A DNA stretch of 63,006 nt from a virus (IMGVR_UViG_3300037840_000064:1-63006), one strand, 5' to 3'; counted from the first letter of the stretch, positions 53 to 32,117 are shown. Translations and numbers: made by a program. Notes: generated by a model from the sequence alone, not told the origin.

Positions 53-295
53 TTATTGTTTCGGCTCATCCTTGGGCTTCTCGGCAATCTGCTTTTGCAA
101 GTCAGCTATCGTTTTTTGCGCCTGTGCCAGTTGTGCCTCTGCCGCCGCCGCCTCATCCAAGGCGCGGTTACGTTGCGCTTGTAGAGCATTAAGCGCCTGC
201 TGTAAGAATGCTGGATCGGCACCTTGCGGGATCGGCTGCTGGGCGAGCGCCGAAGCGGCAAGCAGTGTGAGCATCATTGCGATTATGAGTTGCAT
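53..295 (-). CDS. Small signal-peptide coiled-coil protein downstream of tail fibre genes (possible fibre chaperone or spanin-like protein)
   Basis: MQLIIAMMLTLLAASALA|QQ leader, then heptad-like Ala/Gln/Leu helix; overlaps the stop of the upstream gene. Confidence 0.6.
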   Translation of the reverse strand: MQLIIAMMLTLLAASALAQQPIPQGADPAFLQQALNALQAQRNRALDEAAAAEAQLAQAQKTIADLQKQIAEKPKDEPKQ

Positions 296-1584
296 GTTCC
301 ACCCGTGAGAACGCCGAGCGTGAAAATCAAAGTTTTTGCTTGGTTGACGGTACAGGTCTGCGTCAAGCCCGGCGACAATCCCGCCTGAAATCCTGTACCC
401 ACAATGATGCCGGCACCGCCGTCCGTGGCGATATTTGCATTACCGACCGATAATCCACCGCTCGCCTGAAATCGAAACTTCTCTGTCACGGTTGGCGAGC
501 CGCCGCCAGTCACCGCTGTAAATATGGAGCAATAAGTTCCAAATGCAGTCGTGCTCCAATTTTCAGCCGCCCAACAGTTTATGCGAGCCTTGCTTGTCTC
601 AACTGCCGAGGACGATCCCGCTCCGCTGAAATTAATCCGGCCAATCTCGTCCCCGCTTACCAGCGGAGTAGGACTAGCCTGCGTGCCGTCGTAGCGGAGA
701 AAAGTATTAACGCCAAAAGAGCCAAAAGTTTGTACAGCATGACCCGCAGCGGTAGCATCCAAACCAAATATATTAACGCCCTTGCTTATGCTGGCAAGAG
801 TTAATGCCGTTGGCGTTACTGCATTCTGGTTAATCAGAAACGCGCCAGGTGCAGCATCAAGCCCACTTTGGGGAGTGTCATTGGCATAAGTGCCAAGGTA
901 AAGTGCGCCGTCGTTGAATAGGGTTAGTTGAGGGACTTGCGTAGTGGTTCCCGCCAAAGTCACCTTCATTTCCAGGCGCGTACATTCTGACGAAGTACTC
1001 CAATTGCAATCCGCATAAACCTGATAGCTACCCCGAGCCTCTATCCAGCCGGTAGTGCTGCTGCCGGTTCCGCAAAGCGCTTGATTGCAGCCGCCGCCGC
1101 CGAAGGATACAAGAGTGTCGTTAGCCAAGATTGCGGTCGGCGCTCCCAACGTCCCATTAGCGTGCGCCCCAGTAAACGCCGGAGAATTTCCAGTGCCTGC
1201 GGTATTTGTATTTGCGAGATAGACACTAATTCTCGCGCCGCCCCCGTCTGCCCCCGCCAAGATCAAAACATTGTCGGTTTGAGATATCGGCATAACGGGA
1301 GCAAAACTGATTTTTGGAATAACCGTGCTTGGAACCGAAAAACTGATGCCGCTATCGGTCAACCCCGTTCCCGTGGCGTTGTACCACGGCAAATCTTTCG
1401 GAGTTCCAAGGGTTCCGCCATTGATCGCATTGCAAGTGTACTGCGTTGATGCCGCGCGATTATCGCAAGTCGCGGCAGGCGCAGTCGGCACGATGCAATT
1501 CGGATTCGACGGCCCGCACCCCTGCGCCGCCGCCGGCAGCGCCGAGACAATCAGGAGCGCAAGCGCAAGTAGAATCTTCTTCAT
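283..1584 (-). CDS. Tail fibre/receptor-binding protein with Sec-type signal peptide
   Basis: Start moved to MKKILLALALL (TGATG overlap with upstream stop); Gly/Thr/Ser-rich internally repeated beta-type sequence; located after the main fibre gene. Confidence 0.65.
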   Translation of the reverse strand: MKKILLALALLIVSALPAAAQGCGPSNPNCIVPTAPAATCDNRAASTQYTCNAINGGTLGTPKDLPWYNATGTGLTDSGISFSVPSTVIPKISFAPVMPISQTDNVLILAGADGGGARISVYLANTNTAGTGNSPAFTGAHANGTLGAPTAILANDTLVSFGGGGCNQALCGTGSSTTGWIEARGSYQVYADCNWSTSSECTRLEMKVTLAGTTTQVPQLTLFNDGALYLGTYANDTPQSGLDAAPGAFLINQNAVTPTALTLASISKGVNIFGLDATAAGHAVQTFGSFGVNTFLRYDGTQASPTPLVSGDEIGRINFSGAGSSSAVETSKARINCWAAENWSTTAFGTYCSIFTAVTGGGSPTVTEKFRFQASGGLSVGNANIATDGGAGIIVGTGFQAGLSPGLTQTCTVNQAKTLIFTLGVLTGGTCNS

Positions 1585-1965: not shown

Positions 1966-3906
1966 TCAACCCATAATTTCCGTCAGCCTCATCGTACCTA
2001 TACCGAAAGTGCCAGAACCAACGTTATTATTGCCATATACAGTGTACGCCTGGCTCGAAGAAACCCCTGGTGCATCGAGAACATCGAATACGCAAGGTGC
2101 CGATACAACACCGGCGCTGTTATTGATACCCACCGCCTGCGGCTCGCCGATAGCAGTCGATGTTCCCCGTCGAACCTGCGCACTTACTTGTGAAACGCTT
2201 GTCCCACTCACACCCGCCGCAGCAACACCGATTGCATTGATCAAAATAAGGTTTGCTGCACTGGTCGGTATAATGCTTGATGTAATGGTCGTAGCGGCCG
2301 CCGTTCCAGTGAGGCTGGTAGCACTGGCCGTCGCAAAGAAAACCGTCTGCACCGGGTCACCGGGTTTTTTGCACGAGGCCGGCGCCAAGCAAAATTGCAG
2401 CGTCGTCGGGGCGGACGCCCATGTCCCTGCCGTTCCCAAGCCCGAAGCATAGTCTGCGTAGCCGAGAATAATCACACTGTCGTTGCTGGTATTGGCCGAC
2501 GTATAAAGAACACCCGCCGTTCCTGATCCAGCGGTTATTCCCGTGCCGCTTTTCTGGATCGTCTCCCAGGCCGTGCACGGAAAGATCGCCGTCGCAGTTG
2601 AACATTTTGCAACCCCCAAAATCGGCGTGCCGCCGTTGTATGCGGCAAATATCCAGATTCGGAACGGGACATTGCTGCTCGACGTTCCGAGCGTCGCACC
2701 GGATGGAATCGTGATACCCAAAGCGCCTTGCGGTATGGCCCAAAGCGGATCGCCGTTCGCCAAGGTGGTATCCCGGAAGCGCAGCGGACCTCCTGAATAG
2801 GTGATAGTCAGTGCGCTCGCACTAGCAACCGCCGCGAGGCTTCCATTGACCGGACCATGTACGTCAAGCCACCACGTCCCCGACGACAAGGCGTTGGTGC
2901 TGATCCACACCCAAGAACCGGATGGAATCGTAATCGAGGTTCCCGACCCAACACCGGGAAAATTATCGTTGGCGTTCGGCGTAATCGTGCAGATGCCAGA
3001 GATCGCGTAAATCCAGAAACCGAATCCGGCCTGCAACGTATTGGCGCGAGGCAGCGTATAGGTGATTGGTCCCGTGCAAATCCTCTGATTCAACTGAAAC
3101 GCGGACGTAACGCTCTGGCTTGTGGAATCCGCAGTCGCAACGAACGTCTGCCGAAGTGTTCCCGCCCCATCATCAGCCAGACCATAGGAACCAACATTCT
3201 CCGTCGCCGCACTGCCCAAACCCAAGTCTGTCCGAGCCGCTGCAATCGTCGGCGCATTAACCACCGGCTGCATCGCCGACGAGACCGTTCCCGCAGGCAG
3301 CGTCGAAATCGCAACCGGAACACATCCCGTCGCATCAAATCCGAGCGCCTGGTTCGCTCGCTGTGCGGCAGCGGGTAACGGCGCGAGACTCCCACAACTA
3401 TCCGAAACCGGAATTGCAATCCCTCGCCCAAATAGCGCGTTCAACTGCTGAATCTGCATCGACAGAAGATCAAGCGCCGCTTCAACCGCAGTCGGGAATG
3501 CTTGCCCCTGATTCGAGCTTACGGTTTGCAGATAGGGCAGCGTCCGCGCGATGGTGATCGTCGTTCCAGACGCGATAGGGGAACCAACGAGAGGGTATGT
3601 GACCGAGCCGCCGAGGCCCCAGATTGCTCCCGGCAGCGGTGCGGTAAGCGTGAGCGTGTATTGCGTGTTCGGCGTAAGCGTCGTCTGGTTGCCGTTCGCG
3701 TCCGTGTAGATCACAGTAATGTCGTTGGAGGCGACGCCGATAAACGGGAACGTGAAATTCGTAATCGAGCCATTGCCGCCGATCACCACGGACGATTGCG
3801 CACTCGTAACTGTCGCGCGCACGTAACCGAGCCACGCCAAGTCGGCAATCTCGCCCAGGACAATAAGGCCGATGAACGCGAGCAGGAGGCGTGCGGCTTT
3901 TTTCAT
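1966..3906 (-). CDS. Tail fibre protein with T7 gp17-like N-terminal attachment domain, preceded by a signal peptide
   Basis: TVTS..GNGSITNFTFPF..ITVIYTD..TITIARTLPYLQ..VEAALDLLSMQIQQL is the podovirus fibre N-terminal pattern; AARTDLGLGSAAT fibre motif. Confidence 0.85.
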   Translation of the reverse strand: MKKAARLLLAFIGLIVLGEIADLAWLGYVRATVTSAQSSVVIGGNGSITNFTFPFIGVASNDITVIYTDANGNQTTLTPNTQYTLTLTAPLPGAIWGLGGSVTYPLVGSPIASGTTITIARTLPYLQTVSSNQGQAFPTAVEAALDLLSMQIQQLNALFGRGIAIPVSDSCGSLAPLPAAAQRANQALGFDATGCVPVAISTLPAGTVSSAMQPVVNAPTIAAARTDLGLGSAATENVGSYGLADDGAGTLRQTFVATADSTSQSVTSAFQLNQRICTGPITYTLPRANTLQAGFGFWIYAISGICTITPNANDNFPGVGSGTSITIPSGSWVWISTNALSSGTWWLDVHGPVNGSLAAVASASALTITYSGGPLRFRDTTLANGDPLWAIPQGALGITIPSGATLGTSSSNVPFRIWIFAAYNGGTPILGVAKCSTATAIFPCTAWETIQKSGTGITAGSGTAGVLYTSANTSNDSVIILGYADYASGLGTAGTWASAPTTLQFCLAPASCKKPGDPVQTVFFATASATSLTGTAAATTITSSIIPTSAANLILINAIGVAAAGVSGTSVSQVSAQVRRGTSTAIGEPQAVGINNSAGVVSAPCVFDVLDAPGVSSSQAYTVYGNNNVGSGTFGIGTMRLTEIMG

Positions 3907-13309: not shown

Positions 13310-13867
13310 CTAAGCATCGAAGCCAACATGAAACCTACAATACAGCGCACCGTTAAGTCCCACAGGCTCGGCTTTTTCCACAGCAAAGCCGAGAATCCGA
13401 AGAAACTTGATCGCCTGCGCATAGTCGGCAGCCACGAACGACTCAAGTCGCGGTCTTAACTTCCTCATGGCTGCCAACTCTGCTTTCGCTACCCTGACAA
13501 ACGAGAACGGCACAGACTCGATAGCAGCCGATGTATGCAACCACGGCACGCCAAGATCGGACAAAGGACTCACACCAGCGCGCAATCCTATTCCCAATCC
13601 CCAAATCGCCGCAACCTTGTCAGCCACCAACGCCGTCTTGCACATGATCGAATTACGATACGCCCGCCACAGTGCTTTCTTGACGCCAAATCCGAGATTG
13701 AGAATTTCCAATCGGTCCTGTTCGCGCAAGGACTCCGCGAGCGCATAGATGTGCGCGATCTCGGTCGGCTGGATAGTGTACGCTCTCGGCACGGATTGAT
13801 CGTCAAACGGTATCGCGCGGTGACCGTAGCCGTTCATCCCTATGGCCTGGTCACGCATTGGGGACAT
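13310..13867 (-). CDS. T7 gp13-like / GNAT-fold virion assembly protein
   Basis: LREQDRLEI..GVPWLHTS..AIKFLRILGF pattern; located after the nozzle gene. Confidence 0.7.
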   Translation of the reverse strand: MSPMRDQAIGMNGYGHRAIPFDDQSVPRAYTIQPTEIAHIYALAESLREQDRLEILNLGFGVKKALWRAYRNSIMCKTALVADKVAAIWGLGIGLRAGVSPLSDLGVPWLHTSAAIESVPFSFVRVAKAELAAMRKLRPRLESFVAADYAQAIKFLRILGFAVEKAEPVGLNGALYCRFHVGFDA

Positions 13868-16800
13868 CGCCTAATTCGAGTTCCGGGATGAACGCAAGGA
13901 TTTCAGCCGGGAGAGGCAGCAATTGCTGCACCGCGACCATACCCGGCGACGCCTGACGATCCGGGGTGGCAGTGGAATAATCGCCCGCGATCACTTCGTA
14001 TCGATCACCTGAGAACAATGGCACGGCGTTGCCCGCGCCCGCAAGCGCATTCGCTTCCGTGAGTTGCGTCATTAAATTCGGCGCCTGATTCCAGGGTATC
14101 TCGATCTGATTCTGTTGCTGCGCCGCAATCGGCTGATCCTGCCCGATCATGATGCCGCGCGTATTCGCCATCCGCACGGTCACACCCTGAATCCTCTTTC
14201 TCTTGCCCTGGATCGTTTCGCCCGGCATGTCGGCGTGCATCGATTGCGCCTGTGCGATGAACGGCAAGCCAATGAGAACCTGACTGGCGGGATTCGGCAG
14301 GGTCACCGAGCCATTGACCACCACAAGCCCCACGACCGGCGTCCCGTCGCAAAGGGCATTGACCGTCATCCCCTCCAAATGCTCCAAGCCCGATATGGAA
14401 CTCACAGGCTGCGTCAAGGTCCACGATCCCGCAACCGCCGGAACCGGCATATTGTTCGGATCGTTCGCAATCGTGGTCGCAATGGCTGCCTGCGGCGCCA
14501 CCTGTGCGGTTATCAGAGTCGGGGAGACGTAGAGCACGGACGTTCCAATTCCGCCTCCCACGCGCAACACAGCCCCGTTATTGCCCGATGAGAACACGGC
14601 GCCATCCGCCGTGAAGGTCACCGTATTATCGACCACAAGGGAGATATTGACCCCGGAGCCCGTCGCGTCCGTGACGATGATTCGCGGCAGCTTGTAATTG
14701 ACGCCAGGAGTGATGGTAAGGCCGGTTATGACGCCAGCAACAACGGTAAAGCCCGTCACCATCGCACCCGAACCCGTACCGGCGTCATCAACAATCTGCC
14801 CGGCCGGCGTCGCCGAATATCCACTCCCGCCGAGAATGATTGCGCCGAGCTGCACACCGCCGGCGCCATGCGCCGCGGACGCGACAAGGTTTGCATTCGG
14901 GGCCGGCTGCGGCAGCGACAAGGCGCTGTCGAGACAATAGGATTGCTCGACGTTTTGCCACAAGCGATTGTCCATGCGCTCCTGCATGTACATCCACTGG
15001 CCTCTGCCCGTCACGTACCGCTTGACGATGAAATAAGCCGCGTTCACGGGAGGCTCGGACGCAACAGCGACGGAAGCAACCAAACCGCAAGTATCGTGTC
15101 GCGCCCATCCACGCATTTCCTGTTCGGCGATATAGGTCAGAGAGAGCATCTTGCCGTCGTTACGCACGGCCCAGATCAGCCGGTACGGACTGAACGCGAG
15201 CGCCCATTGCACGAGATTCGTGTTCTGGAAAAGCTGACTGGACAAGAGCGTGATGTCCTGCCCCGTGTAGATATTGAAATAGAAATTGTAGTTGATCTCA
15301 TTCACAAACCCGTTGAGAGAATCGACGTAGAGCAGATTGTTTCGGATTCGTATCGGAGCAATCGTCGGCGACGATCCGATGCCTTCCTGCGCTTGCGCGT
15401 TCTGTTGCGATGGCGTGATAGGAGACCCCGCGCCAGCCGTTCCAGAGACTTGCCAGGTTGTGCCGCCCGTGAATGTAACCAAACCGCCCGGCATGGGCCG
15501 CATCCACTGAATACCGTCGATCTGTTCACCCCACGGCGTTCCCGTGATCGAATCGGAATCGATGGGAGGATCGGCAGAATCGAAATTAAGATACGATCCG
15601 GGTTGCGACATTTCGTAGGTATCGGGCGCCGTCAACGAATAGGCGTAAGTGCGCCGTTGCTGAAAATAAGCCGCGACTCCGGGGAAGGTCCCGGACTGAG
15701 GACCGACCGAGAGCGTTCCCGTCGCTCCCGCCCCGCTTCCACTGTCGGCAAAGACCGGCAGATCGGTTGGCAGATAACCCTGGCCTGGATTTTCTATATA
15801 GGTGCCAATCCAACCGCCGCTGCCCGTGAACGTTATGGAAGCAACATTGGTTGGGTATTCGCTATTGGTGCCATCCGTCACGGGACCGCCAGGGCTGCCG
15901 CCGCCCGATCCCGCGGATTGAATGAATTGCGTGCTACCAAATAATTGAACGTTTATAGTTGTAGAATTCGACGCAACGACAAGCCCCTGTGCCGTCGCGG
16001 TTCCTATTTGCTGCGTGACTGTTTCCCCATTCGAGAATGGGTTGCTCGCAAACGTAATTTGCTGGCCCGTGAGCGCAGCGCCGATAATCGGGACGCCCAC
16101 GAACCCTTTGCCCGTCGCGCTATTGATCGTAATGCTGGCAGTTGCCGCCGTATAGTTGGCCCCGATATTGGTCATCGGTATGTCGAGAATCTGTCCGGCA
16201 GCAAATGGATTCGTATGCAACGGCGGTGTGGTGGCGAAGTCGGCAATGATGTTGGTGTCCTGCCAACTTGTCGTGCGCGACGAACCGACATAACCGAACA
16301 ATTGCCCGGCAAAATTGCCGACATTGGTATAATCGGGCGCGGCCCGATAGATTTTATATTCCGACGCCCCCGGAACCGACGGCCAGCTTACCGTGTTGGT
16401 GCCAAACTGCCCGGCAATATCGACAACGGTTCCGACAACGCCTATGGTTGACGGTTGGCTTTCGTCTCCTGTCGCGCTGTCGATGGCCGTCACCACATAG
16501 CCATAAGCCGCCGGTCCCGGCCCGGTCGAATACGCCGTACCGACCACCGTACAGCTTCCCGGCGCCGCAATAGCTGACGCAAAAGACGGCTGTCCTATCG
16601 TCCAGTTGTTTGCAGCAAGTCTCGCCAATTCCTGCGGCGGATATTCGGTCTGCGTCGCCTGATTAACGAGAGTGAGCGACATTGTGTCGGCGCTTTGAAC
16701 GAATTTCAGATAGGGCAGATCGGCGGCGTGATAGGGAGTGACCAGCGTGTAAATGCGCGCTGCCGTGCCGCCTGCGGTAAAAGCGCCATAGGCTGTCGAA

Positions 16801-17303
16801 TTAACCGGAGTACCAAACACGTCCTGAATCGTGACGTTATTTCCGGCCACATTGCGCACGACCACAGTCCGCGCATTAAGCTGTGTCATTCCGCCGAGAC
16901 CAATCAGAAAAATCCAATCCCCCACGACATAATTGTGTCCTGGAATCGTGAGCACACAGGGATTGGCTTGCGACGCGCCAGTGATCACAAAAGCGGCCTC
17001 GGTGACATAGCCGCCGTTGGCGACCACGCGCATATATTGTTCGCCAAATTCCAGGATGTACGACTGAAAAATATTGAATGTGAATTGGATATTGCGCGGC
17101 GGATAGGAACTGGCGGAAGCCGCCTGTTTGCAGAATCCGACGAACGCAAGGCCGCCGCGACTCAGCAAGCCTCCTTTATAAGAGACAAAGAAATTTCGGG
17201 CGACCGAACAGGCTTTGTGCCAGCCCGCGAGGTCCAACCTTCCGTAGAGCGATGGCGAGACTTCGCCGCTGGAAAATGACGATTGGATGATCGGCGTGGC
17301 CAT
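13851..17303 (-). CDS. Tail nozzle (tail tubular protein B, T7 gp12-like) with inserted domains
   Basis: SFSSGEVSPSLYGRLDL start, FPGVAAYFQQR, GWARHDT and GLEHLEG motifs. Confidence 0.9.
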   Translation of the reverse strand: MATPIIQSSFSSGEVSPSLYGRLDLAGWHKACSVARNFFVSYKGGLLSRGGLAFVGFCKQAASASSYPPRNIQFTFNIFQSYILEFGEQYMRVVANGGYVTEAAFVITGASQANPCVLTIPGHNYVVGDWIFLIGLGGMTQLNARTVVVRNVAGNNVTIQDVFGTPVNSTAYGAFTAGGTAARIYTLVTPYHAADLPYLKFVQSADTMSLTLVNQATQTEYPPQELARLAANNWTIGQPSFASAIAAPGSCTVVGTAYSTGPGPAAYGYVVTAIDSATGDESQPSTIGVVGTVVDIAGQFGTNTVSWPSVPGASEYKIYRAAPDYTNVGNFAGQLFGYVGSSRTTSWQDTNIIADFATTPPLHTNPFAAGQILDIPMTNIGANYTAATASITINSATGKGFVGVPIIGAALTGQQITFASNPFSNGETVTQQIGTATAQGLVVASNSTTINVQLFGSTQFIQSAGSGGGSPGGPVTDGTNSEYPTNVASITFTGSGGWIGTYIENPGQGYLPTDLPVFADSGSGAGATGTLSVGPQSGTFPGVAAYFQQRRTYAYSLTAPDTYEMSQPGSYLNFDSADPPIDSDSITGTPWGEQIDGIQWMRPMPGGLVTFTGGTTWQVSGTAGAGSPITPSQQNAQAQEGIGSSPTIAPIRIRNNLLYVDSLNGFVNEINYNFYFNIYTGQDITLLSSQLFQNTNLVQWALAFSPYRLIWAVRNDGKMLSLTYIAEQEMRGWARHDTCGLVASVAVASEPPVNAAYFIVKRYVTGRGQWMYMQERMDNRLWQNVEQSYCLDSALSLPQPAPNANLVASAAHGAGGVQLGAIILGGSGYSATPAGQIVDDAGTGSGAMVTGFTVVAGVITGLTITPGVNYKLPRIIVTDATGSGVNISLVVDNTVTFTADGAVFSSGNNGAVLRVGGGIGTSVLYVSPTLITAQVAPQAAIATTIANDPNNMPVPAVAGSWTLTQPVSSISGLEHLEGMTVNALCDGTPVVGLVVVNGSVTLPNPASQVLIGLPFIAQAQSMHADMPGETIQGKRKRIQGVTVRMANTRGIMIGQDQPIAAQQQNQIEIPWNQAPNLMTQLTEANALAGAGNAVPLFSGDRYEVIAGDYSTATPDRQASPGMVAVQQLLPLPAEILAFIPELELGDVPNA

Positions 17304-18098
17304 TTAAACAAACGCGCCTCCGGGAAACCCCAAACTCGACCAGCCGTAATAGCACATGGCCGTATCCCAGCCGAACCCGTAGCCGGTTATTCCCCGTACC
17401 GCCATCCAATCAGGCACATGGTCGATAGATGTAATCCCCTCATTGCCATCCGAAATTCGCGCTGACTGCACAACCGATGTTGCAATCTCGATTTGCTCCT
17501 TGAGGACTTGCGCATTGCGAGCGAGAGGATTGACCAGCCATGCGCCGAGAGTCGCAATCGCCGCGTTCTGAAAATGAGCATCCCACAGATCGACATTGGT
17601 CACGCGGCACGTATAGACAATCGCTGCAAATTCCAGATCGGTCAGGATGACTTTTATCTGATTGCCCGCAGCATCGGTATCGTTTGCTACAATAAATTTG
17701 TAGCCGGGATTACCCCACGGCCACAGCGGCGTCGTCTGGACGCCAGCCGGAAACGGATTGCCGCTTCCGGTCAACGGCTGATTGCAGAGCAAATATCGCG
17801 CGAGCAAACAATCTGGCGGGTACTGATAGGCATACTGCCAGGGATAGGGAGGAATTGGCAGCGTCGTGCCGTTGGGATTTTCAGGAGTGCCTTGCGCGGC
17901 TTTGAGGACGATACCGTTTTGTTGTTTTCTTGTGAAATTCCAATGTGCTGAACGATGCAGGGCATCAATCCGAATCTGGTATTGGCGCGCAACGACTATC
18001 GCGTTCGGCGGCGGGAGCGGGGGTTGTAGTGACGTAATGGAAAATCGCGCGCCGATGTTGTCCAAACTGATGTTGGCAATATCGACATCCGAAGTCAT
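17304..18098 (-). CDS. Tail adaptor (tail tubular protein A, T7 gp11-like)
   Basis: DIANISLDNIG..HWNFTRK..WQYAYQYPPDCL..WDAHF motifs; precedes the nozzle gene. Confidence 0.85.
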   Translation of the reverse strand: MTSDVDIANISLDNIGARFSITSLQPPLPPPNAIVVARQYQIRIDALHRSAHWNFTRKQQNGIVLKAAQGTPENPNGTTLPIPPYPWQYAYQYPPDCLLARYLLCNQPLTGSGNPFPAGVQTTPLWPWGNPGYKFIVANDTDAAGNQIKVILTDLEFAAIVYTCRVTNVDLWDAHFQNAAIATLGAWLVNPLARNAQVLKEQIEIATSVVQSARISDGNEGITSIDHVPDWMAVRGITGYGFGWDTAMCYYGWSSLGFPGGAFV

Positions 18099-20425: not shown

Positions 20426-21265
20426 TCATGGATGATCCGTTGATTGGTTGGCCGTGGTCATATTGTTAAGCGTCCAATTATTGCCCTCGCCAGAACTATC
20501 GGCGCCGAGCGTCGCGGTAGACGTGCCATTGGAGAACGATAGGAAAAAATCGAACGTGCCAGTATAGGTGCCGCTGTACGTCTTGGGAACGCCCGGCGTC
20601 CCGGTGATGAAGCTCGTCGGCGTGAGTTGCTGGCCGTCAATGTAATAGAACATCGCCATCTTCATGTTGGCGAAGTTTGCGGGCACCTGATTGGAGCCGA
20701 TGCGATAGGTTGCGGCAAAATTGTTCGACAGATTTGCGTTTTGTGCCGGGTAGGTTGCCGTGCCGAACGCCGTAATCAGCGTGCCGTCGACATAGATTTG
20801 AACGCGATTAGCTGCCGTAGCCTGCGTCGTGTCAAAGGCTACGTGCAGATTGTGCCATGTCGTTGTGTCGGTGAAAGTCGCGGTGGTTTGCAGATTAACG
20901 ACAGTCGTGCTGGCCGTGCTGCCTAGAACTTGGACGATACCCGCGCCGAGCAAGCGAAGCGTCAATTCATTGGTTGCGGTCCCGTCGCCGGAGTAATAAA
21001 AGACCTGAGTAGCGCCGGTAGCCGTGTTTTTCCACCACAGATTGACCGTGGACTTCTGCTGGTTAATCCCGACCTTGCCGGTAGCGGAGAGACTCTGCGA
21101 CGACGCTGACGTGAAGATCAGAGAATTTGTCGCCGATGAAACAATTCCTGAGGGCAATATACAAAATCCCGCCGAACACCCGTTGAACTGCGCTTTAGAT
21201 GTATTAAGCGCGAGCAGCGAGAGTGCCACCGTCAGCCAAATGACAAGAGCGACGCGCCATGTCAT
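20426..21265 (-). CDS. LamG/concanavalin-like domain protein with signal peptide
   Basis: TVNLWWK..WHNLHVAFDTTQATAANRVQIYVDG..YYIDGQQLTPTSF..DSSGEGNNWT motifs. Confidence 0.8.
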   Translation of the reverse strand: MTWRVALVIWLTVALSLLALNTSKAQFNGCSAGFCILPSGIVSSATNSLIFTSASSQSLSATGKVGINQQKSTVNLWWKNTATGATQVFYYSGDGTATNELTLRLLGAGIVQVLGSTASTTVVNLQTTATFTDTTTWHNLHVAFDTTQATAANRVQIYVDGTLITAFGTATYPAQNANLSNNFAATYRIGSNQVPANFANMKMAMFYYIDGQQLTPTSFITGTPGVPKTYSGTYTGTFDFFLSFSNGTSTATLGADSSGEGNNWTLNNMTTANQSTDHP

Positions 21266-21777
21266 GTAAGGTCATTTCCGATCACATAGAAATCGCACGT
21301 CGCAGCGCCTCCGGTTCCTGTCGTCAATGAAAGGTAAACCGTATTGATGGTCAGCCGGGTAGTTGCAATATTCGCGGCTAGCGTTAGTCCCAAAACAACT
21401 GCTGCACCTGTCAGCGCCGTGTAGGCTTGAGCAGCCGCAACGAGTGCCGTGCCGCCTTTGCTGGTCGCAGGATAAACGCCGCCCGCAGCCAAGGTGAAGG
21501 TGCCAGAACAATTCGTTACGACGATGGATGTTGGCACCCACGCCGTGATCGAGGCCGGGATGATGCAGGATTGATCCGTCGTGATGTTGAAATTCGCCGC
21601 GCGGATCGAGCAGAGAACGCGATTGACCCCGATATGAAGATTCGTGACTTGGCACGACGTATTGAGGTCGCCAGTGCAAGGCGAAACCGAACCGCCGCCG
21701 CCGAACTGAGCATTGCTCGGAGAAATCAGCGACGATGAAAGAAGGAGCGCAGCGAGCGTCCTTTTTATGCGGCCCAT
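21262..21777 (-). CDS. Signal-peptide, Cys-paired beta protein (putative head decoration/fibre)
   Basis: MGRIKRTLAALLLSSSLISPSNA|Q; six Cys; located in the virion operon. Confidence 0.65.
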   Translation of the reverse strand: MGRIKRTLAALLLSSSLISPSNAQFGGGGSVSPCTGDLNTSCQVTNLHIGVNRVLCSIRAANFNITTDQSCIIPASITAWVPTSIVVTNCSGTFTLAAGGVYPATSKGGTALVAAAQAYTALTGAAVVLGLTLAANIATTRLTINTVYLSLTTGTGGAATCDFYVIGNDLT

Positions 21778-21779
21778 GA

Positions 21780-22595
21780 CTACCACCACGTGCACGTAAA
21801 CTTGTGGCTAGTCGTTGCCGCGATCACGGACAGTGCGTGATTGAGGCCGAAGCCCGGTGGCGCCGTGAACGAGCCGAAGCCAGCAAACGTCGTCGCCGTT
21901 GCGGCCGGCAGTGGATAGCTGCCCGCGCCGGATGCTGCCGCCGTTGTGGTGAATGAAATCCATAGCGGCTCGGTCGCGTCGATGTTGGCGATGGTGAATC
22001 CGTGCAACGTCGTCTGCGCCGTGAAGGCGTTCTGCGCGCCGCCGCCGGACGTTATCGTACCGGAGCAATCGGTCGCGGTGACATTCGAGGGGCCGGCATT
22101 TTGCACTATGCCGTTCGTCGTTCCCGGCGTCGTTTGGTCTATACCTACCTTGCCGATGATCGCCGATCCAGCAACAACACCGACCGTTGCGCCAGTCTGT
22201 TGCGCTGGTGCCGCGCCTTGTGCCGCGAGAATAGCCGCGAGCGTCGTCTGTGTTGCGGCGCCGGTCGGAAGCACGCTCGCCTTGACGTTCACCCATTGGC
22301 CGTTTGTCGTATCGCCGAGCAGCGGCTGAAAATTTCCCGATCCGTCCTTGAAACCGACCGGCGTGCCGTTGGCGCCGATTGGGCCAGCGAACGCGACCGA
22401 AAGACCACCGCCGCCCCCACCGCCAGTTTGGCAAAGGTTGCCGTTCACATCGATGGTGAAAGGTCCAGGATTTCCCGCCTTAAACGCCGTTACGACCGTT
22501 CCGCACGTCGCAACCACAAGCCCGGTTGTATTTTGCGCCCACCCTGGTACTCCCGCGAGCAACAACCACGCAAGAGCAAAGATCAATCTGCGCAT
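21780..22595 (-). CDS. Signal-peptide putative head fibre/decoration protein
   Basis: MRRLIFALAWLLLAGVPGWA|Q; AGSAIIGKVGIDQTTPGTTN fibre-like motif. Confidence 0.65.
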   Translation of the reverse strand: MRRLIFALAWLLLAGVPGWAQNTTGLVVATCGTVVTAFKAGNPGPFTIDVNGNLCQTGGGGGGGLSVAFAGPIGANGTPVGFKDGSGNFQPLLGDTTNGQWVNVKASVLPTGAATQTTLAAILAAQGAAPAQQTGATVGVVAGSAIIGKVGIDQTTPGTTNGIVQNAGPSNVTATDCSGTITSGGGAQNAFTAQTTLHGFTIANIDATEPLWISFTTTAAASGAGSYPLPAATATTFAGFGSFTAPPGFGLNHALSVIAATTSHKFTCTWW

Positions 22596-22624
22596 GGCGC
22601 CATCGCTCCAATGCTTGTCCCAGA

Positions 22625-23908
22625 TCAGAACCGCGCACTGACTTTTATACGGCCCGTGGTCGAAGAACCATTGAGAAAGGCCGCCCCGCCTGCGGTGGCC
22701 GTCACGGTATCGCCGATGGTTACGATACTCGGCGTGCTCGCGCTGTTACAGGTCAGCGTCCCTACCGCCGTATTGGTCCCTGCAAGGTTCCATTTCAGGC
22801 CGCCTGCGGTAAATGCACAGGTCGGCACGGCGCGCATGGTCACCGGCAAATGAAGAACACCCACTTCTACGTTGGTGGCAGAGACCATCCCCGCAGCCAG
22901 GTAGGCCCCGTTGGTTTCGGGAATGAGATAGTAGTAAGCCTCTTGCAGCGCCATTTCTTGGGACGCGGGACGCCGCGCAAACGACCTTGCATTTCCTGCG
23001 TTCGCCGCGAGCAACGCTCCGCTCGTTCCGGCAGCGGTCGTTAGCGACGGGTTGCGGACCAGTTGCGCGCCGGTAAACTCGAACCAGTCGGTCGCACCGC
23101 CATTCCCAACAGGGGTATAGCAGATCACGACTGCAAGCTCGGTCGCCGTTGCCGGGATCGGCGCAACAACGGTATAGCGCGTCCACGTCGTCGTGATCGG
23201 GACCGCTATATTGCTTGCCGCATTGGCTTGGCCGGCCCAGGTCGAAGAACCACCACCACCGCCGTTGAAGGCGAATGCGAGCTTGGAAATGCCTTCGTCA
23301 GTCCCGGTACCATAGACGATGGAGACATTCAGGGCAGAACCAGCAGCGGAGAATCCCGCGCCGGCCTTCACATGAAAGTCAAACTCGGCAGTCTGCGACT
23401 GAAATTTCGTGCTATCGGCGCTCGATATCTCCTGTAGGACACAGGCCGGAATCGTCCCGCCGGTCCCGGACGCTTTGTTGATTCGCAGTGAGGCTGCGTA
23501 GGAAACCGGAATATCAGCCGCGCCAGTCTGCTGGGTTCCCGTGATAACCGTCGTCGAGCCGCCCCATGCCGCCCATTGATCGGCGACATAGGTAATTGTG
23601 GTGGAGACCGAACCCACCGACGTTCCGTCCTGGAACAGATTCGTTCCAAAATCCCCGCCGATCAAAGCATTCTCGGCATTGCCGCCGGCAATCGACTGGC
23701 CGTAGGCACTCAGCGTCGCGCTTGTTGCAAAGCACGACACCGTGCAGGGGTAATTCAAGGAGACTTGCTCAGTGCCATTGAGCGTAAAAAGCTGCTGCAT
23801 CCCCTGGCCGATGGCGCGTTGCACCGGCCCGACAGTTCCGAGCGCCGCCAGAACAATCCCGGTAAGCGCGCAGAGCACCACAACACGCAGGCGAGAGAAG
23901 ATTTTCAT
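22625..23908 (-). CDS. Signal-peptide putative carbohydrate-binding head fibre protein
   Basis: Hydrophobic leader; NALIGGDF..YVADQW..TTTWTRYT..GAQL..PVTMRAVPT fibre/CBM-like pattern. Confidence 0.7.
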   Translation of the reverse strand: MKIFSRLRVVVLCALTGIVLAALGTVGPVQRAIGQGMQQLFTLNGTEQVSLNYPCTVSCFATSATLSAYGQSIAGGNAENALIGGDFGTNLFQDGTSVGSVSTTITYVADQWAAWGGSTTVITGTQQTGAADIPVSYAASLRINKASGTGGTIPACVLQEISSADSTKFQSQTAEFDFHVKAGAGFSAAGSALNVSIVYGTGTDEGISKLAFAFNGGGGGSSTWAGQANAASNIAVPITTTWTRYTVVAPIPATATELAVVICYTPVGNGGATDWFEFTGAQLVRNPSLTTAAGTSGALLAANAGNARSFARRPASQEMALQEAYYYLIPETNGAYLAAGMVSATNVEVGVLHLPVTMRAVPTCAFTAGGLKWNLAGTNTAVGTLTCNSASTPSIVTIGDTVTATAGGAAFLNGSSTTGRIKVSARF

Positions 23909-23950: not shown

Positions 23951-24634
23951 TTAGGTTGTGGTCTGTGCCGGCGCGGCAGGCACGGTATTCGGCATTGGCG
24001 GCCGGCGCTGCTGGCGTTGCGCGCGAGCGTCCATGGTTGCGCGAGCCTGCGGCTGGTGCATTGCGGGAGCGCGGCCCGGATCGGGAGCGATAGGCCCGAC
24101 CGAAGCAAACGGCATCGGCGGTGTATTCGGCGCCATCGGCCGGAAGCCGGGAGTCACGGCGGCGGGACGGCCACGCTTTTCGTCCGCCATCTTCGCGGCG
24201 AGCCGAAGCACATGCGGCCACCACTGATCCATCGGGAATTCCGGGTCGCCCTCGCGCGGGCGCAACTGGAACGCCGCTTCGGTGATGAGTTCTTGCGGGA
24301 TGTTCTTGCCGTCCAGCGGAAGCGAATTCACCCAGTTCTCGAATCGTTCACCCGCCGCGCGGTTGAGCGGCAACCACGCATGAGACGGGATAGCGTCGCT
24401 GGTGAAGATTTCGCCGACTTCAAGGAGCGTAGGCCCGGCTTGGCCGGTCTCGGCGGAAGCGAGGATCAATTGCACTTGGGCCAGTGCTTCGTAAGTCGGC
24501 GCCGTCACGCGGCGTCCGTCATCGGACACAAAGGCTTCGGGAAGCTGTTCGGTCATCGGTAACTCCAATTTTGAAAAGTCGAACAAGGTTTGCGCCGTGC
24601 CCTGAAACTTTTTTGCGGGCGGTCTCATGGACAC
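23951..24634 (-). CDS. Hypothetical protein of the head module
   Basis: 227-aa ORF in operon orientation. Confidence 0.6.
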   Translation of the reverse strand: MSMRPPAKKFQGTAQTLFDFSKLELPMTEQLPEAFVSDDGRRVTAPTYEALAQVQLILASAETGQAGPTLLEVGEIFTSDAIPSHAWLPLNRAAGERFENWVNSLPLDGKNIPQELITEAAFQLRPREGDPEFPMDQWWPHVLRLAAKMADEKRGRPAAVTPGFRPMAPNTPPMPFASVGPIAPDPGRAPAMHQPQARATMDARAQRQQRRPPMPNTVPAAPAQTTT

Positions 24635-24664: not shown

Positions 24665-25225
24665 TTAGGAGGCGACTTTGTAGTTCGAGCCGTAGAACGC
24701 CAAGGTGCTCTGCGCGTCGTCGTCGCCCAGCGTCACGTCCGAAGTCACGGTTCCGGTCGTGGCATTCGAGCCCGCGACCGCATAGTTCAACTGCACGAAT
24801 CGCGGCAATGCCTGGCCGGTCTTGCGCATCGGCCAATCGAAGGATGCGATTCGGGTATTCGCCGTGAGCAGCGCCGCGGCGATGGTGTCGGTCTGGATGT
24901 AAGTGACGAACGTCAAATCCGACCGCAGGCCGGAGACGTGAGAGGTCGCATTTTCCGGCGCACCCTGGAACTGAATCTGCAACGACGTGAGTGTTGCAAA
25001 CGCGGTCCCGACATTGACCACGACGCGGGGCGTGCCTTCGCCCTTGCCGATGCCCAAATCCTCGCCGAAGTAGGTCTCGTTGACCGAGAAGATCGCCGAA
25101 GGCGACGGCGTGTAGGTCGTCGTCAGGCTTTGCCCGGTCAACTGATCGTAGAAGTTGGTCGATTGCGCCGACGCCGTGATGGCCTGCGCGGAAGAAAACT
25201 GTAGTGCCAGATCGAGCATACCCAT
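24665..25225 (-). CDS. Capsid cement protein (BPP-1 Bbp16-like)
   Basis: MLDLALQFSSAQAITASAQSTN..DLGIG..RFVQLNYAVAG..TTGTVT pattern; directly after the capsid gene. Confidence 0.8.
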   Translation of the reverse strand: MGMLDLALQFSSAQAITASAQSTNFYDQLTGQSLTTTYTPSPSAIFSVNETYFGEDLGIGKGEGTPRVVVNVGTAFATLTSLQIQFQGAPENATSHVSGLRSDLTFVTYIQTDTIAAALLTANTRIASFDWPMRKTGQALPRFVQLNYAVAGSNATTGTVTSDVTLGDDDAQSTLAFYGSNYKVAS

Positions 25226-25256: not shown

Positions 25257-26291
25257 TTAGACCACGCGGCTTTCGGTATCGAGAATCTGATCGACCACGC
25301 CGATTGCGATGTTGCGGAAGTTCACAATCGGGCGGCCGGCGTAATCTTCCGGACGCAACAATACATTTTTATCTCTGATGGCCTGGATGTCCATGTACTC
25401 CCGCGAGGTACGATCGCAGTAGAATTTCAGGCGGATCGAGGGAGCGACGCGATCCGGCGCGTCCGTCTTGACGATGCCGGAGACCATGCGGCCGGCGGTC
25501 GGAAGCCGGACAACCGACTTCGACATGATCGCGAAGATGTCCGGGGGAGTCGGGCCGGCGAGCCCTGCGGTCGTGGTGTCGAAGTTCGCCATGCGGATGA
25601 CGTAGCGCCAGTCCTCGATGGCGAGACCGCCGTTGCGCGAGAAGTAGGACGTATAGGCTTCGTAGCGCGCCGTGCCGTTCGACGTGAGGGCCGGAACCAA
25701 GTCGCCCTTGTTCTCGAAGATCAATCCGGCTTTCGTGCCATCCGGATAAATCTCGTAACAGGTCTGGTCGCCCCAGCCGATGAGCCAGATCGACGTATTC
25801 GACGATCCGGTGCCGCCGGCATCGAACACATTGACGCCGTTCGGGGTATTGGCGATTGCGGAGAAATACGTCGAGAAACCGGAGAACTGTTCCGGCGTCG
25901 TCCAGGCATTGCCGTAAACGAGGAAACCGGTCCACTGCTGGGACATGCCCTCCATATGGGCCACGTCCTCTTTCTCGCGGTTGGCGTTGGTATTGCCGCC
26001 AAGATCGGCGAGGCGCTTGTCGATCTGCGAGTAGGCGTCCAGCATTGCCATGCCGAACGTGATCTGCGCGGCACTCGACTTGGTGTAGCCGACGCCTTGG
26101 TTGAAGCGGCGCAGCGTGCCCTTGGGCAGCGCAGTGCGCAGCGTGACAACGTGGCCGGTTGTGAGGTTACCCTTGACCAGCGGGGCATCCTCGTCGATCT
26201 CGTTGCATTGAGACATCAATTCGGCCATGTCGGCGATCTTGCCGCCAGGGTCCATGCGACGGCCGACATCGGCCAGGGTCAAGGAAGCCAT
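25257..26291 (-). CDS. Major capsid protein (BPP-1 Bbp17 / epsilon15 gp7-like)
   Basis: LTLAD..AELMSQCNEI..RTALP..RRFNQG..NTSIWLIGWG..GLAIEDWRYVIRMAN..DQILDTE motifs. Confidence 0.92.
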   Translation of the reverse strand: MASLTLADVGRRMDPGGKIADMAELMSQCNEIDEDAPLVKGNLTTGHVVTLRTALPKGTLRRFNQGVGYTKSSAAQITFGMAMLDAYSQIDKRLADLGGNTNANREKEDVAHMEGMSQQWTGFLVYGNAWTTPEQFSGFSTYFSAIANTPNGVNVFDAGGTGSSNTSIWLIGWGDQTCYEIYPDGTKAGLIFENKGDLVPALTSNGTARYEAYTSYFSRNGGLAIEDWRYVIRMANFDTTTAGLAGPTPPDIFAIMSKSVVRLPTAGRMVSGIVKTDAPDRVAPSIRLKFYCDRTSREYMDIQAIRDKNVLLRPEDYAGRPIVNFRNIAIGVVDQILDTESRVV

Positions 26292-29519: not shown

Positions 29520-31364
29520 TCACTGCCCGCCTCCCGCTGGCGGCGCAGCGCCCGTGCCGCCGCCGCTCAGCATCAATTGCAACGCATTCTGGCCGCCGCC
29601 CGTATCCGTTTGTGACAGATTTTGTGCGGCGGATGCAATGGCCGGAGTGACCTTTTCGGCAACGTGTGCCTGTTGCGCCGCCTGTTGGGCTTGCGTTCGC
29701 TGCCCGCGAATCTGCTGGATCGTCGCCTGATCGTTCCAATCCTCCGGCGGAAACTCGACGGCCTCGCCATAGTCGCGGATGTATTTGTCTGCGTTGATGT
29801 TGTCGAGAACGCCGGGCATCGCCGCTTCCATGCGGCCCGCCATAACCATCGTGCGCTCCATGCCGGCGGTTTTTGCGGCCTGCTGGATCAATGCGAGCTT
29901 GGACACGAATTTGACCTGGATCGGAACACCTTGCAGCGAGGCCGGCTTTGGCGGGATCAATCCGCGGCGATTCATGATCGAAACGATTCGGGTAAGTCCA
30001 ATGCCATCCTCGCGAAGATTGCGCTCGATGACAGGACCAAGCCGCAACAGTTTCTCGCCGCGGCGCTCTTGCAATTCCAACTCGTTGCGCGGCTGCACGC
30101 CTTCCATCTGCGAGATCATTTCAAACACGTCGTTGGCGAACCATCGCTCGATGCGCTTCTGCAACGTGACGATCTTGTTCTCGATGAATTCCACAAAGCG
30201 CGGATCGACCGTATAAGCGGCTTTCATGCCGGCGTTCTGCGCCAGGTTCGGGACGTATGTGACCTTGCCGGGAAGCGTCGAAGCCGGTTCGTTCTTCAAC
30301 GTCGCGTCCGCGAGCATCGGCGGACGAACGCCCTTGTCGATGGCCTCGGCCTCGCGCCGCGTCATCTGGTTTAACTGACTGATGTCCGGCAGCGCATCCA
30401 TGCCGAGTCCGCGACCATAGGGCTCGCTTGATCGTTGCGTCCAAGGCGCATACATGAACGGCTTTTCGCGGTAGCCCCGCACCGACAACGGCTGTGGCGT
30501 GTTGAGACCGCGCAGCCAATACGTCTCGCGATAGGCATAACCGCCCGGCACCACGCCGAGTCTCGGCTTCTGTCCGTACTGATTCGCGGGAAAATTCGGT
30601 TCGATTGAGTGCGCGACGATGAATTCGGTTTCGAGATTCGCGCCCTTGGTATTCCAAAGTTGTGCAACGTCGCTGCCCGCGACAGCCTTTGGCCCGAATC
30701 GCTGCACGATGGAGCGCACGGTCAGAACGAATTCCCGATCAAATGTCTCAATGGAATTGTCCGACCCCGCCGCCCCAAAATATTCCCCGGCGCACGGCAC
30801 TTCGCAATTGATGATTCGCTCGCGATTCTCGTAGATCAACATCGGCGCGGTTCCGAACGTGATCTGATCCTCGTAATACTGATGTTTGCGGTCGTAGTAA
30901 TTTGATCCCGCCAGAACATCGTAAGTGATCTGCTGAAACTCGTTGAGCCATCGCTTACCGGCGGTATCCAGTTCGACGCCTTCGGGCGCTTCGAACTTGA
31001 ACCAGACTTTTGTCGGCGATGACAGGCCGTCCATCATACCGGCGGCACAGACGCCGATTGCTTGGGTCGTTGTCGAATCCACGACGTTCTGATTGATCGG
31101 CAACCCGCGCGTCATGTTGTTGGGCGTGATGACCCAATAATAGCGCCGCGGCAGCGCCTGCTCGGCTATCGCGCCCCAATGCATCCACCATGGCGTGCGC
31201 CAGTTGCGCATTCCAAGGAGCACCTGTTCGAGATAATTGCGAAAGTCCTCCCAATCCTGATTGGAAGTCCAGGTCTTGCCGTCGATGATCGCGGGCGTGA
31301 GCGCCAACAGCGACGCGCTGGCGTTCTCATAATAGACTTCGGCGCGTTCGGCGGTGAGCGCCAT
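29520..31364 (-). CDS. Portal (head-tail connector)
   Basis: VVDSTT..CAAGMMDGLSSP..WF..SNYY..FGTA..PYGRGLGMDALPD..ERRGEKLLRLGPV T7/BPP-1-type portal motifs. Confidence 0.93.
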   Translation of the reverse strand: MALTAERAEVYYENASASLLALTPAIIDGKTWTSNQDWEDFRNYLEQVLLGMRNWRTPWWMHWGAIAEQALPRRYYWVITPNNMTRGLPINQNVVDSTTTQAIGVCAAGMMDGLSSPTKVWFKFEAPEGVELDTAGKRWLNEFQQITYDVLAGSNYYDRKHQYYEDQITFGTAPMLIYENRERIINCEVPCAGEYFGAAGSDNSIETFDREFVLTVRSIVQRFGPKAVAGSDVAQLWNTKGANLETEFIVAHSIEPNFPANQYGQKPRLGVVPGGYAYRETYWLRGLNTPQPLSVRGYREKPFMYAPWTQRSSEPYGRGLGMDALPDISQLNQMTRREAEAIDKGVRPPMLADATLKNEPASTLPGKVTYVPNLAQNAGMKAAYTVDPRFVEFIENKIVTLQKRIERWFANDVFEMISQMEGVQPRNELELQERRGEKLLRLGPVIERNLREDGIGLTRIVSIMNRRGLIPPKPASLQGVPIQVKFVSKLALIQQAAKTAGMERTMVMAGRMEAAMPGVLDNINADKYIRDYGEAVEFPPEDWNDQATIQQIRGQRTQAQQAAQQAHVAEKVTPAIASAAQNLSQTDTGGGQNALQLMLSGGGTGAAPPAGGGQ

Positions 31365-31910: not shown

Positions 31911-32117
31911 CTACCTCCCAAGCGGATCGTACTCGGCTGTAAACATCGGCCGCCGCGGTTTCAATTCCTGTTCGAGCATCCACAGTTGCGGGCCATTCAA
32001 GCTCTGTAACGCCTTTGACGCAACCTCGCGAGTCACATGATCGCGGCGCATGATGTAGCCGATGGCGCGCTCGCGCTGCGCTTGATCGTCATCGGGTTTG
32101 GTAGGCGAGGGGATCAT
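31911..32117 (-). CDS. Small protein ending in the same AEYDPL motif as TerL
   Basis: Start at MIPSPTK; C-terminus MFTAEYDPLGR. Confidence 0.6.
   Translation of the reverse strand: MIPSPTKPDDDQAQRERAIGYIMRRDHVTREVASKALQSLNGPQLWMLEQELKPRRPMFTAEYDPLGR

Follow-up and report, generated by a model that had tools for sequence, protein, structure and literature searches.

Predicted exported, disulfide-type proteins with fibre-type domains in the late operon of an uncultured podophage

In textbook accounts the assembly of tailed phages is entirely cytoplasmic. The locus described here, in the uncultured soil phage IMGVR_UViG_3300037840_000064, raises the question of what proteins with an export signal would do among the head and tail genes of such a phage. 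Four consecutive genes of its late operon, here named SP1 to SP4, each start with a candidate signal peptide (leader) of the Sec type. The phage is of the epsilon15/BPP-1-like short-tailed podophage type, and the whole stretch that was analysed (the window), 63,006 bp long, is listed in IMG/VR as a complete virus and has its late genes on the minus strand. An earlier note on this DNA had read the four products as a secreted, disulfide-stabilised set of head fibres or decorations, possibly pyroglutamate-capped. All four open reading frames (ORFs) that it listed were recovered, each with a Sec-type leader (lengths in amino acids, aa):

SP1: 22625..23908, minus strand, 427 aa
SP2: 21780..22595, minus strand, 271 aa
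SP3: 21262..21777, minus strand, 171 aa from the ATG at 21777
SP4: 20426..21265, minus strand, 279 aa

Together with their paired cysteines (Cys), the leaders imply that the four proteins probably fold outside the cytoplasm, the compartment in which the rest of the particle is built. Export and disulfide folding of SP1-4 are, on these features, very probable. That they are the host-recognition gear of the phage, made as exported proteins, is a proposition we regard as evenly balanced, and their joining of the particle, the best but unproven reading, we hold with half confidence. What is new is the apparent production of phage fibre and lectin modules as exported, disulfide-paired proteins, in a pattern that extends to the whole clade.

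The genes are tightly packed. SP1 and SP2 are separated by 29 nucleotides (nt), the SP2 stop lies 2 nt from the SP3 ATG, and SP3 and SP4 overlap in an ATGA; because of these gaps and the overlap the block looks translationally coupled. The packing also leaves no room for later starts, so that the leader-coding stretches lie inside the genes. An alternative SP3 start at GTG 21795 was rejected; the ATG at 21777 is the real start, and the ESM Atlas record begins at the same residue.

Cysteine pairing tracks the leader

Leaders were judged by a home-made n/h/c rule, which also flags membrane proteins. It asks for a charged n-region, an uncharged h-region of about 10-20 residues, small residues at -3/-1 and no Cys at +1. 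By this rule the N-termini of all four proteins have the features of Sec/signal peptidase I substrates, the SP1 site being ambiguous:

SP1: N-terminus MKIFSRLRVVVLCALTGIVLAALGTVGPVQRAIG, then QGMQQ; leader-coding segment 23807..23908, minus strand, residues 1-34, if cut at RAIG/Q, or 23837-23908, residues 1-24, if cut at ALG/T
SP2: N-terminus MRRLIFALAWLLLAGVPGWA, then QNTTG; leader residues 1-20, 22536-22595, cleavage GWA/Q
SP3: N-terminus MGRIKRTLAALLLSSSLISPSNA, then QFGGG; leader residues 1-23, 21709-21777, cleavage SNA/Q
SP4: N-terminus MTWRVALVIWLTVALSLLALNTSKA, then QFNGC; leader residues 1-25, 21191-21265, cleavage SKA/Q

The leaders are conserved in relatives. A charged n-region followed by a hydrophobic h-region is present in 119 of the 120 listed SP1 homologues, and the single leaderless entry is the window's own protein in a truncated prediction. 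The leader sequences of this family differ widely, which looks like selection for function and not for sequence. Similarly, the relatives of SP2, SP3 and SP4 in close phages have retained a leader although the leader sequences differ.

The strongest result of the analysis is the pairing of cysteines in the predicted mature parts. Mature SP1, SP2, SP3 and SP4 contain 6, 4, 6 and 2 Cys, respectively, exactly the even counts reported before, and an even number (2, 4, 6, 8 or 10) is found in 117 of 119 members of the SP1 family. Across 23 related loci, the leader-bearing ORFs of at least 120 aa (76 distinct proteins) comprise 69 with an even count, five with an odd count and two without Cys, against 54, 63 and 51, respectively, for 168 leaderless ORFs of the same loci. 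Single-linkage clustering did not remove the difference: 37 even, one odd and two zero among 40 leader-bearing clusters versus 32, 40 and 29 among 101 leaderless ones (Fisher p 5e-9). Several of the odd leader-bearing cases are visibly wrong cleavage calls that keep a leader Cys in the mature part.

The same dependence is seen within single families. In the SP3 family Cys pairs occur in 11/11 leader-bearing members versus 0/6 leaderless ones; the alignment places an NCS...TCD pair in all 11 of the former and a second pair in 8/11, and Ala, Gly or Ile at the Cys-pair columns in all six of the latter. Proteins with the central motif of SP2 (see below) are divided into 20 even, no odd and one zero when leader-bearing, and 15 even, 23 odd and 11 zero when leaderless. 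As a control, the leader rule was applied to 400 kb of a Hyphomicrobiales chromosome, where it flagged 62 of 315 ORFs, with 20 even, 20 odd and 22 zero counts; in the absence of a parity skew in this host-type sample, the rule itself creates no bias.

At the sequence level the cysteines are thus paired, and their pairs come and go with the leader, as would be expected of disulfide-type proteins. The leaderless structural proteins of the phage are Cys-poor, and its 1986-aa and 893-aa proteins have none. Since leaderless virion proteins also leave the cell and yet are unpaired, the pairing points to oxidative folding in the periplasm and not to later oxidation. The clusters therefore bear out the earlier description of SP1-4 as secreted, disulfide-type proteins.

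The hydrophobic stretch of SP1 is long (~21 residues) and its site ambiguous, and the leader of the tailspike described below is atypical in having charged residues after the h-region. Both features would suit N-termini that are no cleaved export signals at all, being uncleaved anchors or assembly or targeting segments, or belonging to cytoplasmic proteins. We consider this unlikely. The n-region, the h-region and the small residues at -3/-1 recur in families with unrelated leader sequences, and a near-absolute even Cys count that tracks the leader is hard to explain for cytoplasmic proteins, the leaderless virion proteins being unbiased. Moreover, even if the anchor stayed uncleaved, its positive N-terminus would leave the body of the protein in the periplasm.

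The predicted residue at +1 is a separate matter. The earlier note had all four proteins maturing to Gln, which holds for SP2, SP3 and SP4 with their clear -3/-1 sites; in SP1, AALG/TVGPVQ is as good as RAIG/QGM under the -3/-1 rule. One subfamily conserves the segment between the two SP1 sites, GPVQRAxxQGM; c-regions seldom show this, and it makes the mature Gln of SP1 uncertain. Among relatives, Gln stands at +1 in 10/11 leader-bearing SP3 proteins and, by the home-made rule, which favours polar residues at this position, in 70/119 SP1 relatives and 32/76 clade proteins. Gln is also the commonest polar +1 residue in the 400-kb Hyphomicrobiales sample (9/62 leader-like ORFs), so in the phage it may simply mirror the leader-peptidase context of the host.

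A Gln exposed by leader cleavage (the Q-rule) is described as Bacteroidetes-specific (Bochtler et al. 2018, PMC5837995; PMC10653852). Exposure of Gln is predicted here in SP2, SP3, SP4, the 433-aa protein described below and perhaps SP1. Phage genes in the leader style of their host are known from earlier work on Porphyromonas gingivalis phages (PMC10367356). Nevertheless, the phage differs from the Bacteroidetes systems in its Shine-Dalgarno-like sites and in its nearest genome-binned relative, which is assigned to Hyphomicrobiales. A Bacteroidota host, an idea suggested by the Q-rule, was rejected on ribosome-binding-site use: a Shine-Dalgarno-like motif precedes 15/38 valid starts versus a background of 7.6%. 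Capping of the mature N-termini by pyroglutamate is possible, as a speculation. It formed part of the earlier proposal that SP1-4 are head fibres or decorations, attached from outside to the cement or capsid lattice, and this proposal as a whole seems improbable to us. The AxA/Q-type site in three of the four proteins and the near-constant Gln of leader-bearing SP3 members agree with it, whereas the frequency of Gln in host-type leaders speaks against a special role for this residue, as does a ribosome-binding-site usage unlike that of Bacteroidota, the only group for which PMC5837995 describes the Q-rule with a dedicated cyclase. Its claim about the head is taken up with the gene order below.

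Fibre-type domains of the four proteins

In SP1 the leader is followed by a short N-terminal stretch that varies, then by a beta-sandwich of CBM4-like type (~64-290) and a C-terminal domain (~300-427) that can be swapped; the last ~100 residues are exchanged among relatives. More than 207 homologues were found, many of them on contigs of 57-68 kb, and two of the six mature cysteines, Cys156 and Cys263, are invariant in the family alignment. The AlphaFold2 model (pLDDT 83, pTM 0.78) superposes at ~64-290 on the CBM4-2 structure 4bj0_A (Z 14.9, root-mean-square deviation 2.6 over 161 residues). It also superposes on the CBM4-type distal modules of two phage fibres, the C-terminal domain of CBA120 tailspike 4 (TSP4; PDB 5w6h, Z 13.6) and the tail fibre gp52 of Klebsiella phage Kp7 (PDB 7xyc, Z 12.8). 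Foldseek returned CBM4, CBM22 and CBM16 matches (E 4e-5 to 4e-4). The whole chain resembles BFVD models named tail fibre in many phages, among them BcepNazgul, Xanthomonas phages FoX4 and OP1 and cyanophages (E 4e-30 to 1e-13, TM 0.5-0.7). Pfam gave no family for any of SP1-4, and for SP1 none at E <= 0.1; given the superposition, SP1 is CBM4-like at the fold level without being filed as a member. The CBM or fibre-type fold that had been suspected from the sequence is thus supported for this protein.

A variable C-terminal domain is a feature that SP1 shares with receptor-binding proteins. The fibres of the CBA120 TSP4 and Kp7 type differ from it in having long leaderless shafts and docking parts made in the cytoplasm, where SP1 has a Sec-type leader and a short N-terminal segment. 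The C-terminus of SP1 (...SARF) had suggested an outer-membrane beta-barrel, an idea that was dropped because the model is a soluble beta-sandwich with a small domain.

The SP1 profile matched 16 times in 301 Hyphomicrobiales genomes. Eight of these loci were inspected and encode leaderless proteins of 277-537 aa that have only the CBM-like or the C-terminal part in common with SP1; for these reasons they were rejected as orthologous prophages. Five of the Hyphomicrobiales loci (L120-L122, L126, L127) encode leaderless proteins of 488-537 aa starting ...QAQKHVTHNEAL..., which share the CBM-like region of the profile (L120-L122) or its C-terminal part only (L126, L127) and resemble cytoplasmic-type prophage fibre proteins. 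In L127 the gene adjoins a lysozyme-like gene.

SP3 is predicted to form a homotrimeric knob from its mature part. The trimer score was 0.87 versus 0.00 for the best control, on a scale whose mark was reached in calibration by 20/30 solved pairs and 1/23 single chains, with two copies and not three; the runs had at least 48% of contacts in common and pLDDT of at least 83. A trimer was modelled for SP3 only among the four proteins. The SP3 profile covers 2014 representative clusters (E <= 0.001), where the domain often forms the extreme C-terminus of proteins of 400-1113 aa. Five of ten such long carriers that were scanned match pectate-lyase or beta-helix Pfam families, and a 692-aa protein ending in the SP3 domain matches tail and tailspike PHROGs.

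SP4 matches phrog_27411 and phrog_19943 ('virion structural protein'). Its mature part starts with a putative disulfide-loop cassette, QFNGCSAGFC, followed by a lectin-type domain. In a tblastn search SP4 matched podophages of Pelagibacter, cyanobacteria and Roseobacter, in proteins whose annotation is virion structural, SPRY, concanavalin A-like lectin/glucanase or fibre. In leaderless relatives of 774-1062 aa, which also match virion-structural PHROGs, the domain stands in front of tail-fibre PHROG regions. For SP4, the LamG or concanavalin A label is that of its relatives: some homologues are annotated as concanavalin A-like lectins, and Pfam gave no match.

SP2 is linked to distal fibre and tailspike domains by a shared motif, where SP1, SP3 and SP4 are linked by whole domains. 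It matches phrog_22789, and its C-terminal ~100 aa are conserved in close relatives. The structure was predicted poorly (pLDDT 52, pTM 0.32; Atlas model pLDDT 0.61) and no fold could be derived from it; in the Atlas a neighbouring cluster gave a mere lead to the PRD1 P5 spike (score 0.82). The central motif IIGKVGIDQTTPGTTN (residues ~140-167, window 22100-22180) is common to many phage proteins. Nearly identical copies stand in 141 confirmed IMG/VR stretches (including loci L027-L096), in proteins of 197 to 1316 aa that have nothing else in common and of which some bear a leader and others do not. The motif has the look of a transferable piece of phage fibres, for joining or docking.

Leader-bearing proteins and the particle

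The place of SP1-4 on a particle has to be judged against the other structural genes. The late genes follow the order terminase, portal, scaffold, major capsid protein, cement, a 227-aa gene, SP1-4, several small genes and the tail genes; the tail part runs from an adaptor-like gene through the nozzle, four internal-virion proteins and the tailspike to a 433-aa protein, which comes last. The main features are:

29520-31364, minus strand: portal
25257..26291, minus strand: major capsid protein of the epsilon15 gp7 type (Pfam PF20911, GP7 of epsilon15, E 1e-90)
24665..25225, minus strand: capsid cement protein (Pfam PF21190 Bbp16, 28.1 bits versus a cut-off of 27.1; phrog_427)
23951..24634, minus strand: 227-aa gene of unassigned function between the cement gene and SP1, without leader and without Cys
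17304-18098, minus strand: adaptor-like tail protein
13851..17303, minus strand: tail nozzle, 1150 aa, without leader (PDB 8ck1_A 'Tail Nozzle', E 2e-71; phrog_376)
1966..3906, minus strand: tailspike, 646 aa, with the leader-like start MKKAARLLLAFIGLIVLG...VRA/TVTS before a docking domain (residues 41-158)
283..1584, minus strand: 433-aa protein downstream of the tailspike, with the leader MKKILLALALLIVSALPAAA, then QGCGPSNPNC (site AAA/Q, 12 mature Cys)

The core of the particle (capsid, nozzle and internal proteins) consists of leaderless HK97-type or podophage parts. Sec-type leaders in the structural operon number six (SP1-4, the 646-aa tailspike and the 433-aa protein), besides two small Tat-like ORFs. 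The earlier tally of seven exported proteins, six of them with a mature Gln, was not reproduced; the tailspike would mature to Thr. No family match was found for the 433-aa protein, and the ATG of its gene overlaps the stop of an upstream 109-aa gene by one base.

The tailspike ties a leader to a part known to belong to phage tails. Its residues 41-158 match the docking domain found at the N-terminus in tail and tailspike PHROGs, as well as residues 11-123 of the Dpo31/Dpo36 tailspike in PDB (E 1e-10), an entry set that includes a tail complex with a homologue of the nozzle (8ck1). The homologous tailspike of a related complete phage starts with MRRVIFAFLAFAFAFAPCANA, then TITSS, and has no later start codon available. 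As two divergent phages both place a leader ahead of this domain, the tailspike appears to be a bona fide particle-docking protein with a conserved leader.

Other leader-bearing proteins show a comparable layout. The segment QFNGCxAGFC follows the leader of SP4 and of at least five proteins with other distal domains, and QCNGVFPAxTxCGN that of three other proteins; further leader-bearing proteins of relatives match tail-fibre PHROGs. Conserved post-leader segments with swapped distal parts form the pattern of fibres that dock by their N-terminus. A further cassette of this kind was noticed in four loci (L003, L005, L008, L104), whose leader-bearing proteins of 167-1084 aa have the mature start Q(T/G/S)(V/S)(I/L)LQGGP(T/W)TPGH; some of them match tail-fibre PHROGs in their C-terminal halves. 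In the phage itself every fibre or spike candidate bears a leader, which implies at least one exported protein on the infectious particle, unless the enlarged nozzle binds the receptor.

The placing of the block just after the cement gene was right as to the region but not to the letter, as the 227-aa gene intervenes before SP1; its product has a 47% identical homologue in the relative L001. In a survey of related phages, which the earlier note had suggested, the leader-bearing block is kept and is syntenic in the closest relatives, with the same order of genes (SP1, SP2, SP3 and a gene in the SP4 position) and leaders on all of them. In relatives as in the window, the block stands between the capsid and cement genes on one side and those for adaptor and nozzle on the other, a position that is the only hint of attachment to the head. 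Against such attachment, similar leader-bearing proteins lie among the tail genes of relatives L004, L005 and L008, and all domain relatives found are parts of tail fibres or tailspikes. Any attachment could be to the head or to the tail.

The number and kind of leader genes vary, four in the window versus seven consecutive ones between the cement and tail genes of L001 (capsid 83% identical), as might be seen with ordinary morons, that is, host-derived secreted cargo unrelated to the phage life cycle. Such an origin is very unlikely. The block shows neither signals of its own (promoter-like sites 5 versus 3.4 expected, terminator-like sites 6 versus 13.3 expected, no excess of either) nor a deviating composition (its G+C is ordinary) nor a patchy presence, being conserved and syntenic in relatives. 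Its starts are translationally coupled, its families are viral and homologous to fibre parts, and a non-exhaustive scan of ORFs, 20 further ones included, revealed no PHROG for an integrase or a repressor.

A rival with more in its favour, though still less likely than not to be right, is that SP1-4 are exported late and never sit on a particle. As derivatives of fibre tips they would attach to glycans, on the surface or in the periplasm, of the infected cell and its debris. This would mask receptors, sparing progeny a useless adsorption to dead cells or blocking superinfection, or it would aid release. The effect would resemble that of T5 Llp or of receptor-destroying enzymes. Export and sugar-binding-type folds suit this scheme as well, and the SP3 knob often occurs by itself behind a leader, with 46 of the 150 best representatives flagged. 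In PMC10367356, five Q-rule leader genes of Porphyromonas gingivalis phages, of unassigned function, are likewise read as likely modifiers of the host envelope. Three of the observations given above argue against this scheme: a particle-docking domain follows the leader of the tailspike, the conserved post-leader cassettes with swapped distal domains are those of docking fibres, and the virion would otherwise be devoid of any fibre or spike. Finally, leader-bearing proteins are annotated as virion proteins detected by mass spectrometry in the record of a cultured podophage.

This record is that of Cellulophaga phage phi18:3 (NC_021794, a Pachyviridae podovirus), in which gp085 (virion structural), gp086 (structural) and gp087 (tail protein) are annotated, as an annotation only, 'based on experimental MS/MS proteomics analysis' (MS/MS, tandem mass spectrometry). 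On translation they start with MKNKITIIMILMSISFGYS, MKKTIYILSILLLTISGVSA and MKHTFSIVLFFILSIGLNA, respectively, each then followed by Q; seven other phi18:3 proteins with the same annotation have no leader. Like SP1-4, gp085-087 are consecutive late genes with a Sec-type leader and then Gln. They differ in their Bacteroidota host, where Gln at +1 is the general rule, in having no sequence relation to SP1-4 and in their few Cys (0, 1 and 3). By analogy, this annotation would be the only experimental hint that leader-bearing proteins reach particles.

Virion proteins with signal peptides are familiar from the filamentous Ff phages, whose g8p and g3p are inserted or exported by the host, g3p being disulfide-bonded in the periplasm. 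Ff particles, however, are assembled at the membrane and extruded, whereas the capsid, nozzle and internal proteins of the present phage are leaderless parts of cytoplasmic origin. Lambda Bor and Lom, T5 Llp and Cor are phage-encoded signal-peptide proteins that act in the host envelope. Each is encoded by a small gene standing alone, in many cases under its own promoter, and has no relation to fibres, whereas a conserved fibre-type block lies here inside the late operon. The literature searches made turned up no account of tailed-phage fibres or spikes with a Sec leader; passages in PMC13001222, PMC9144972 and PMC10975493 deal with spanins or a single esterase.

We return to the reading of SP1-4 as exported host-recognition proteins that join the particle. 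Transcribed late alongside the head and tail genes, each protein would be sent by its cleavable N-terminal leader through the host Sec system and would fold in the oxidising periplasm with all its Cys paired. It and the leader-bearing tailspike would most likely meet the capsid and tail built in the cytoplasm no earlier than the opening of the inner membrane by holin, or else after lysis. By what holins do in lysis, the natural moment would be the breaking of the inner membrane, when particles and periplasmic proteins could mix inside a still-closed outer membrane. Docking would then proceed via the short conserved N-terminal segments, leaving the variable sugar-binding and knob domains displayed. 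In its widest form, which we put forward tentatively and at somewhat below even confidence, the clade would build capsid and tail in the cytoplasm, mature every appendage for host recognition, from tailspike and fibres to lectin-like knobs, in the periplasm via the Sec and disulfide machinery, and become infectious only once holin merges the two compartments.

Several points weigh against this picture. We know of no documented route from the periplasm to cytoplasmic particles, which also favours a role off the particle. The presence of SP1-4 in particles is a deduction from sequence, and the MS/MS detection in phi18:3 could stem from co-purifying material. A close cultured relative is missing, as the best identity of the major capsid protein in the phage collection, to epsilon15/phiV10-like and other cultured phages, is only about 40%; blastn of the four-gene block against phage records and tblastn of SP1, SP2 and SP3 against 50,697 phage records gave no match. 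Many of the host-type ORFs flagged by the home-made leader rule are membrane proteins. The tailspike contains 9 Cys after its predicted site, an odd number. Finally, the nozzle has 1150 aa, compared with 830 aa in the solved 8ck1_A and 988 aa in L001, and its surplus of about 300 aa over the solved homologue, located before residue about 535, could be an added binding domain; the nozzle may then bind the receptor itself, which weakens the argument for a leader-bearing protein on the virion.

If the reading is true, the last step of assembly of a tailed phage would be extracytoplasmic, and, judging by thousands of leader-bearing relatives, many other soil and aquatic phages would share such assembly. 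The view of how lysis timing is coupled to particle maturation would change, and Sec, Dsb and leader peptidase would become phage dependency factors or targets of resistance. Host-range engineering would be affected if receptor-binding parts were routinely exported, as such fibres would misfold in the cytoplasm. The recognition of fibre genes in metagenomes would also change, with a simple signature to survey, namely a leader and strictly paired Cys on fibre-type domains.

Host and other genes of the phage

The only genome-binned near relative is a related 62.6-kb contig, binned as Hyphomicrobiales. A scan of genome contigs gave three loci only, all on contigs of metagenome-assembled genomes and labelled Hyphomicrobiales, Patescibacteria and Terracidiphilus; as these labels disagree, the host assignment is weak.

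A likely lysis cassette lies at the end of the record (61507-62707, minus strand). It contains a GH19-type endolysin gene:

61902-62597, minus strand: GH19-type endolysin

Upstream of it is a small ORF (62528-62707) with a C-terminal hydrophobic stretch, and downstream an 88-aa ORF (61507-61773) whose product has a proline-rich tail and, in FGVAC, a lipobox-like sequence. The latter could be an outer-membrane spanin, which, if so, would imply a host with two membranes.

The large terminase is apparently split within 32089-34613 (minus strand) into an ATPase part (33735-34613; phrog_31467, phrog_2) and a nuclease part (32089-32940; Pfam Terminase_6C). Between the two lie the small ORFs with Tat-like N-termini, TRRKFF... 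(33384-33734) and SRRGFLFG... (33073-33387). The first was found in none of five related complete phages, bar one weak match (E 6e-4), and the second matches the capsid family GP7 weakly, below the threshold. Cys is absent from both large proteins of the internal-virion or ejection type (1986 aa and 893 aa; 4070-12708, minus strand), whereas the clade's leader-bearing proteins contain 1.8% Cys. Finally, the genome carries four separate genes of the DNA methyltransferase family (37929-39278, 46871-47431, 47608-48360 and 53124-53837).

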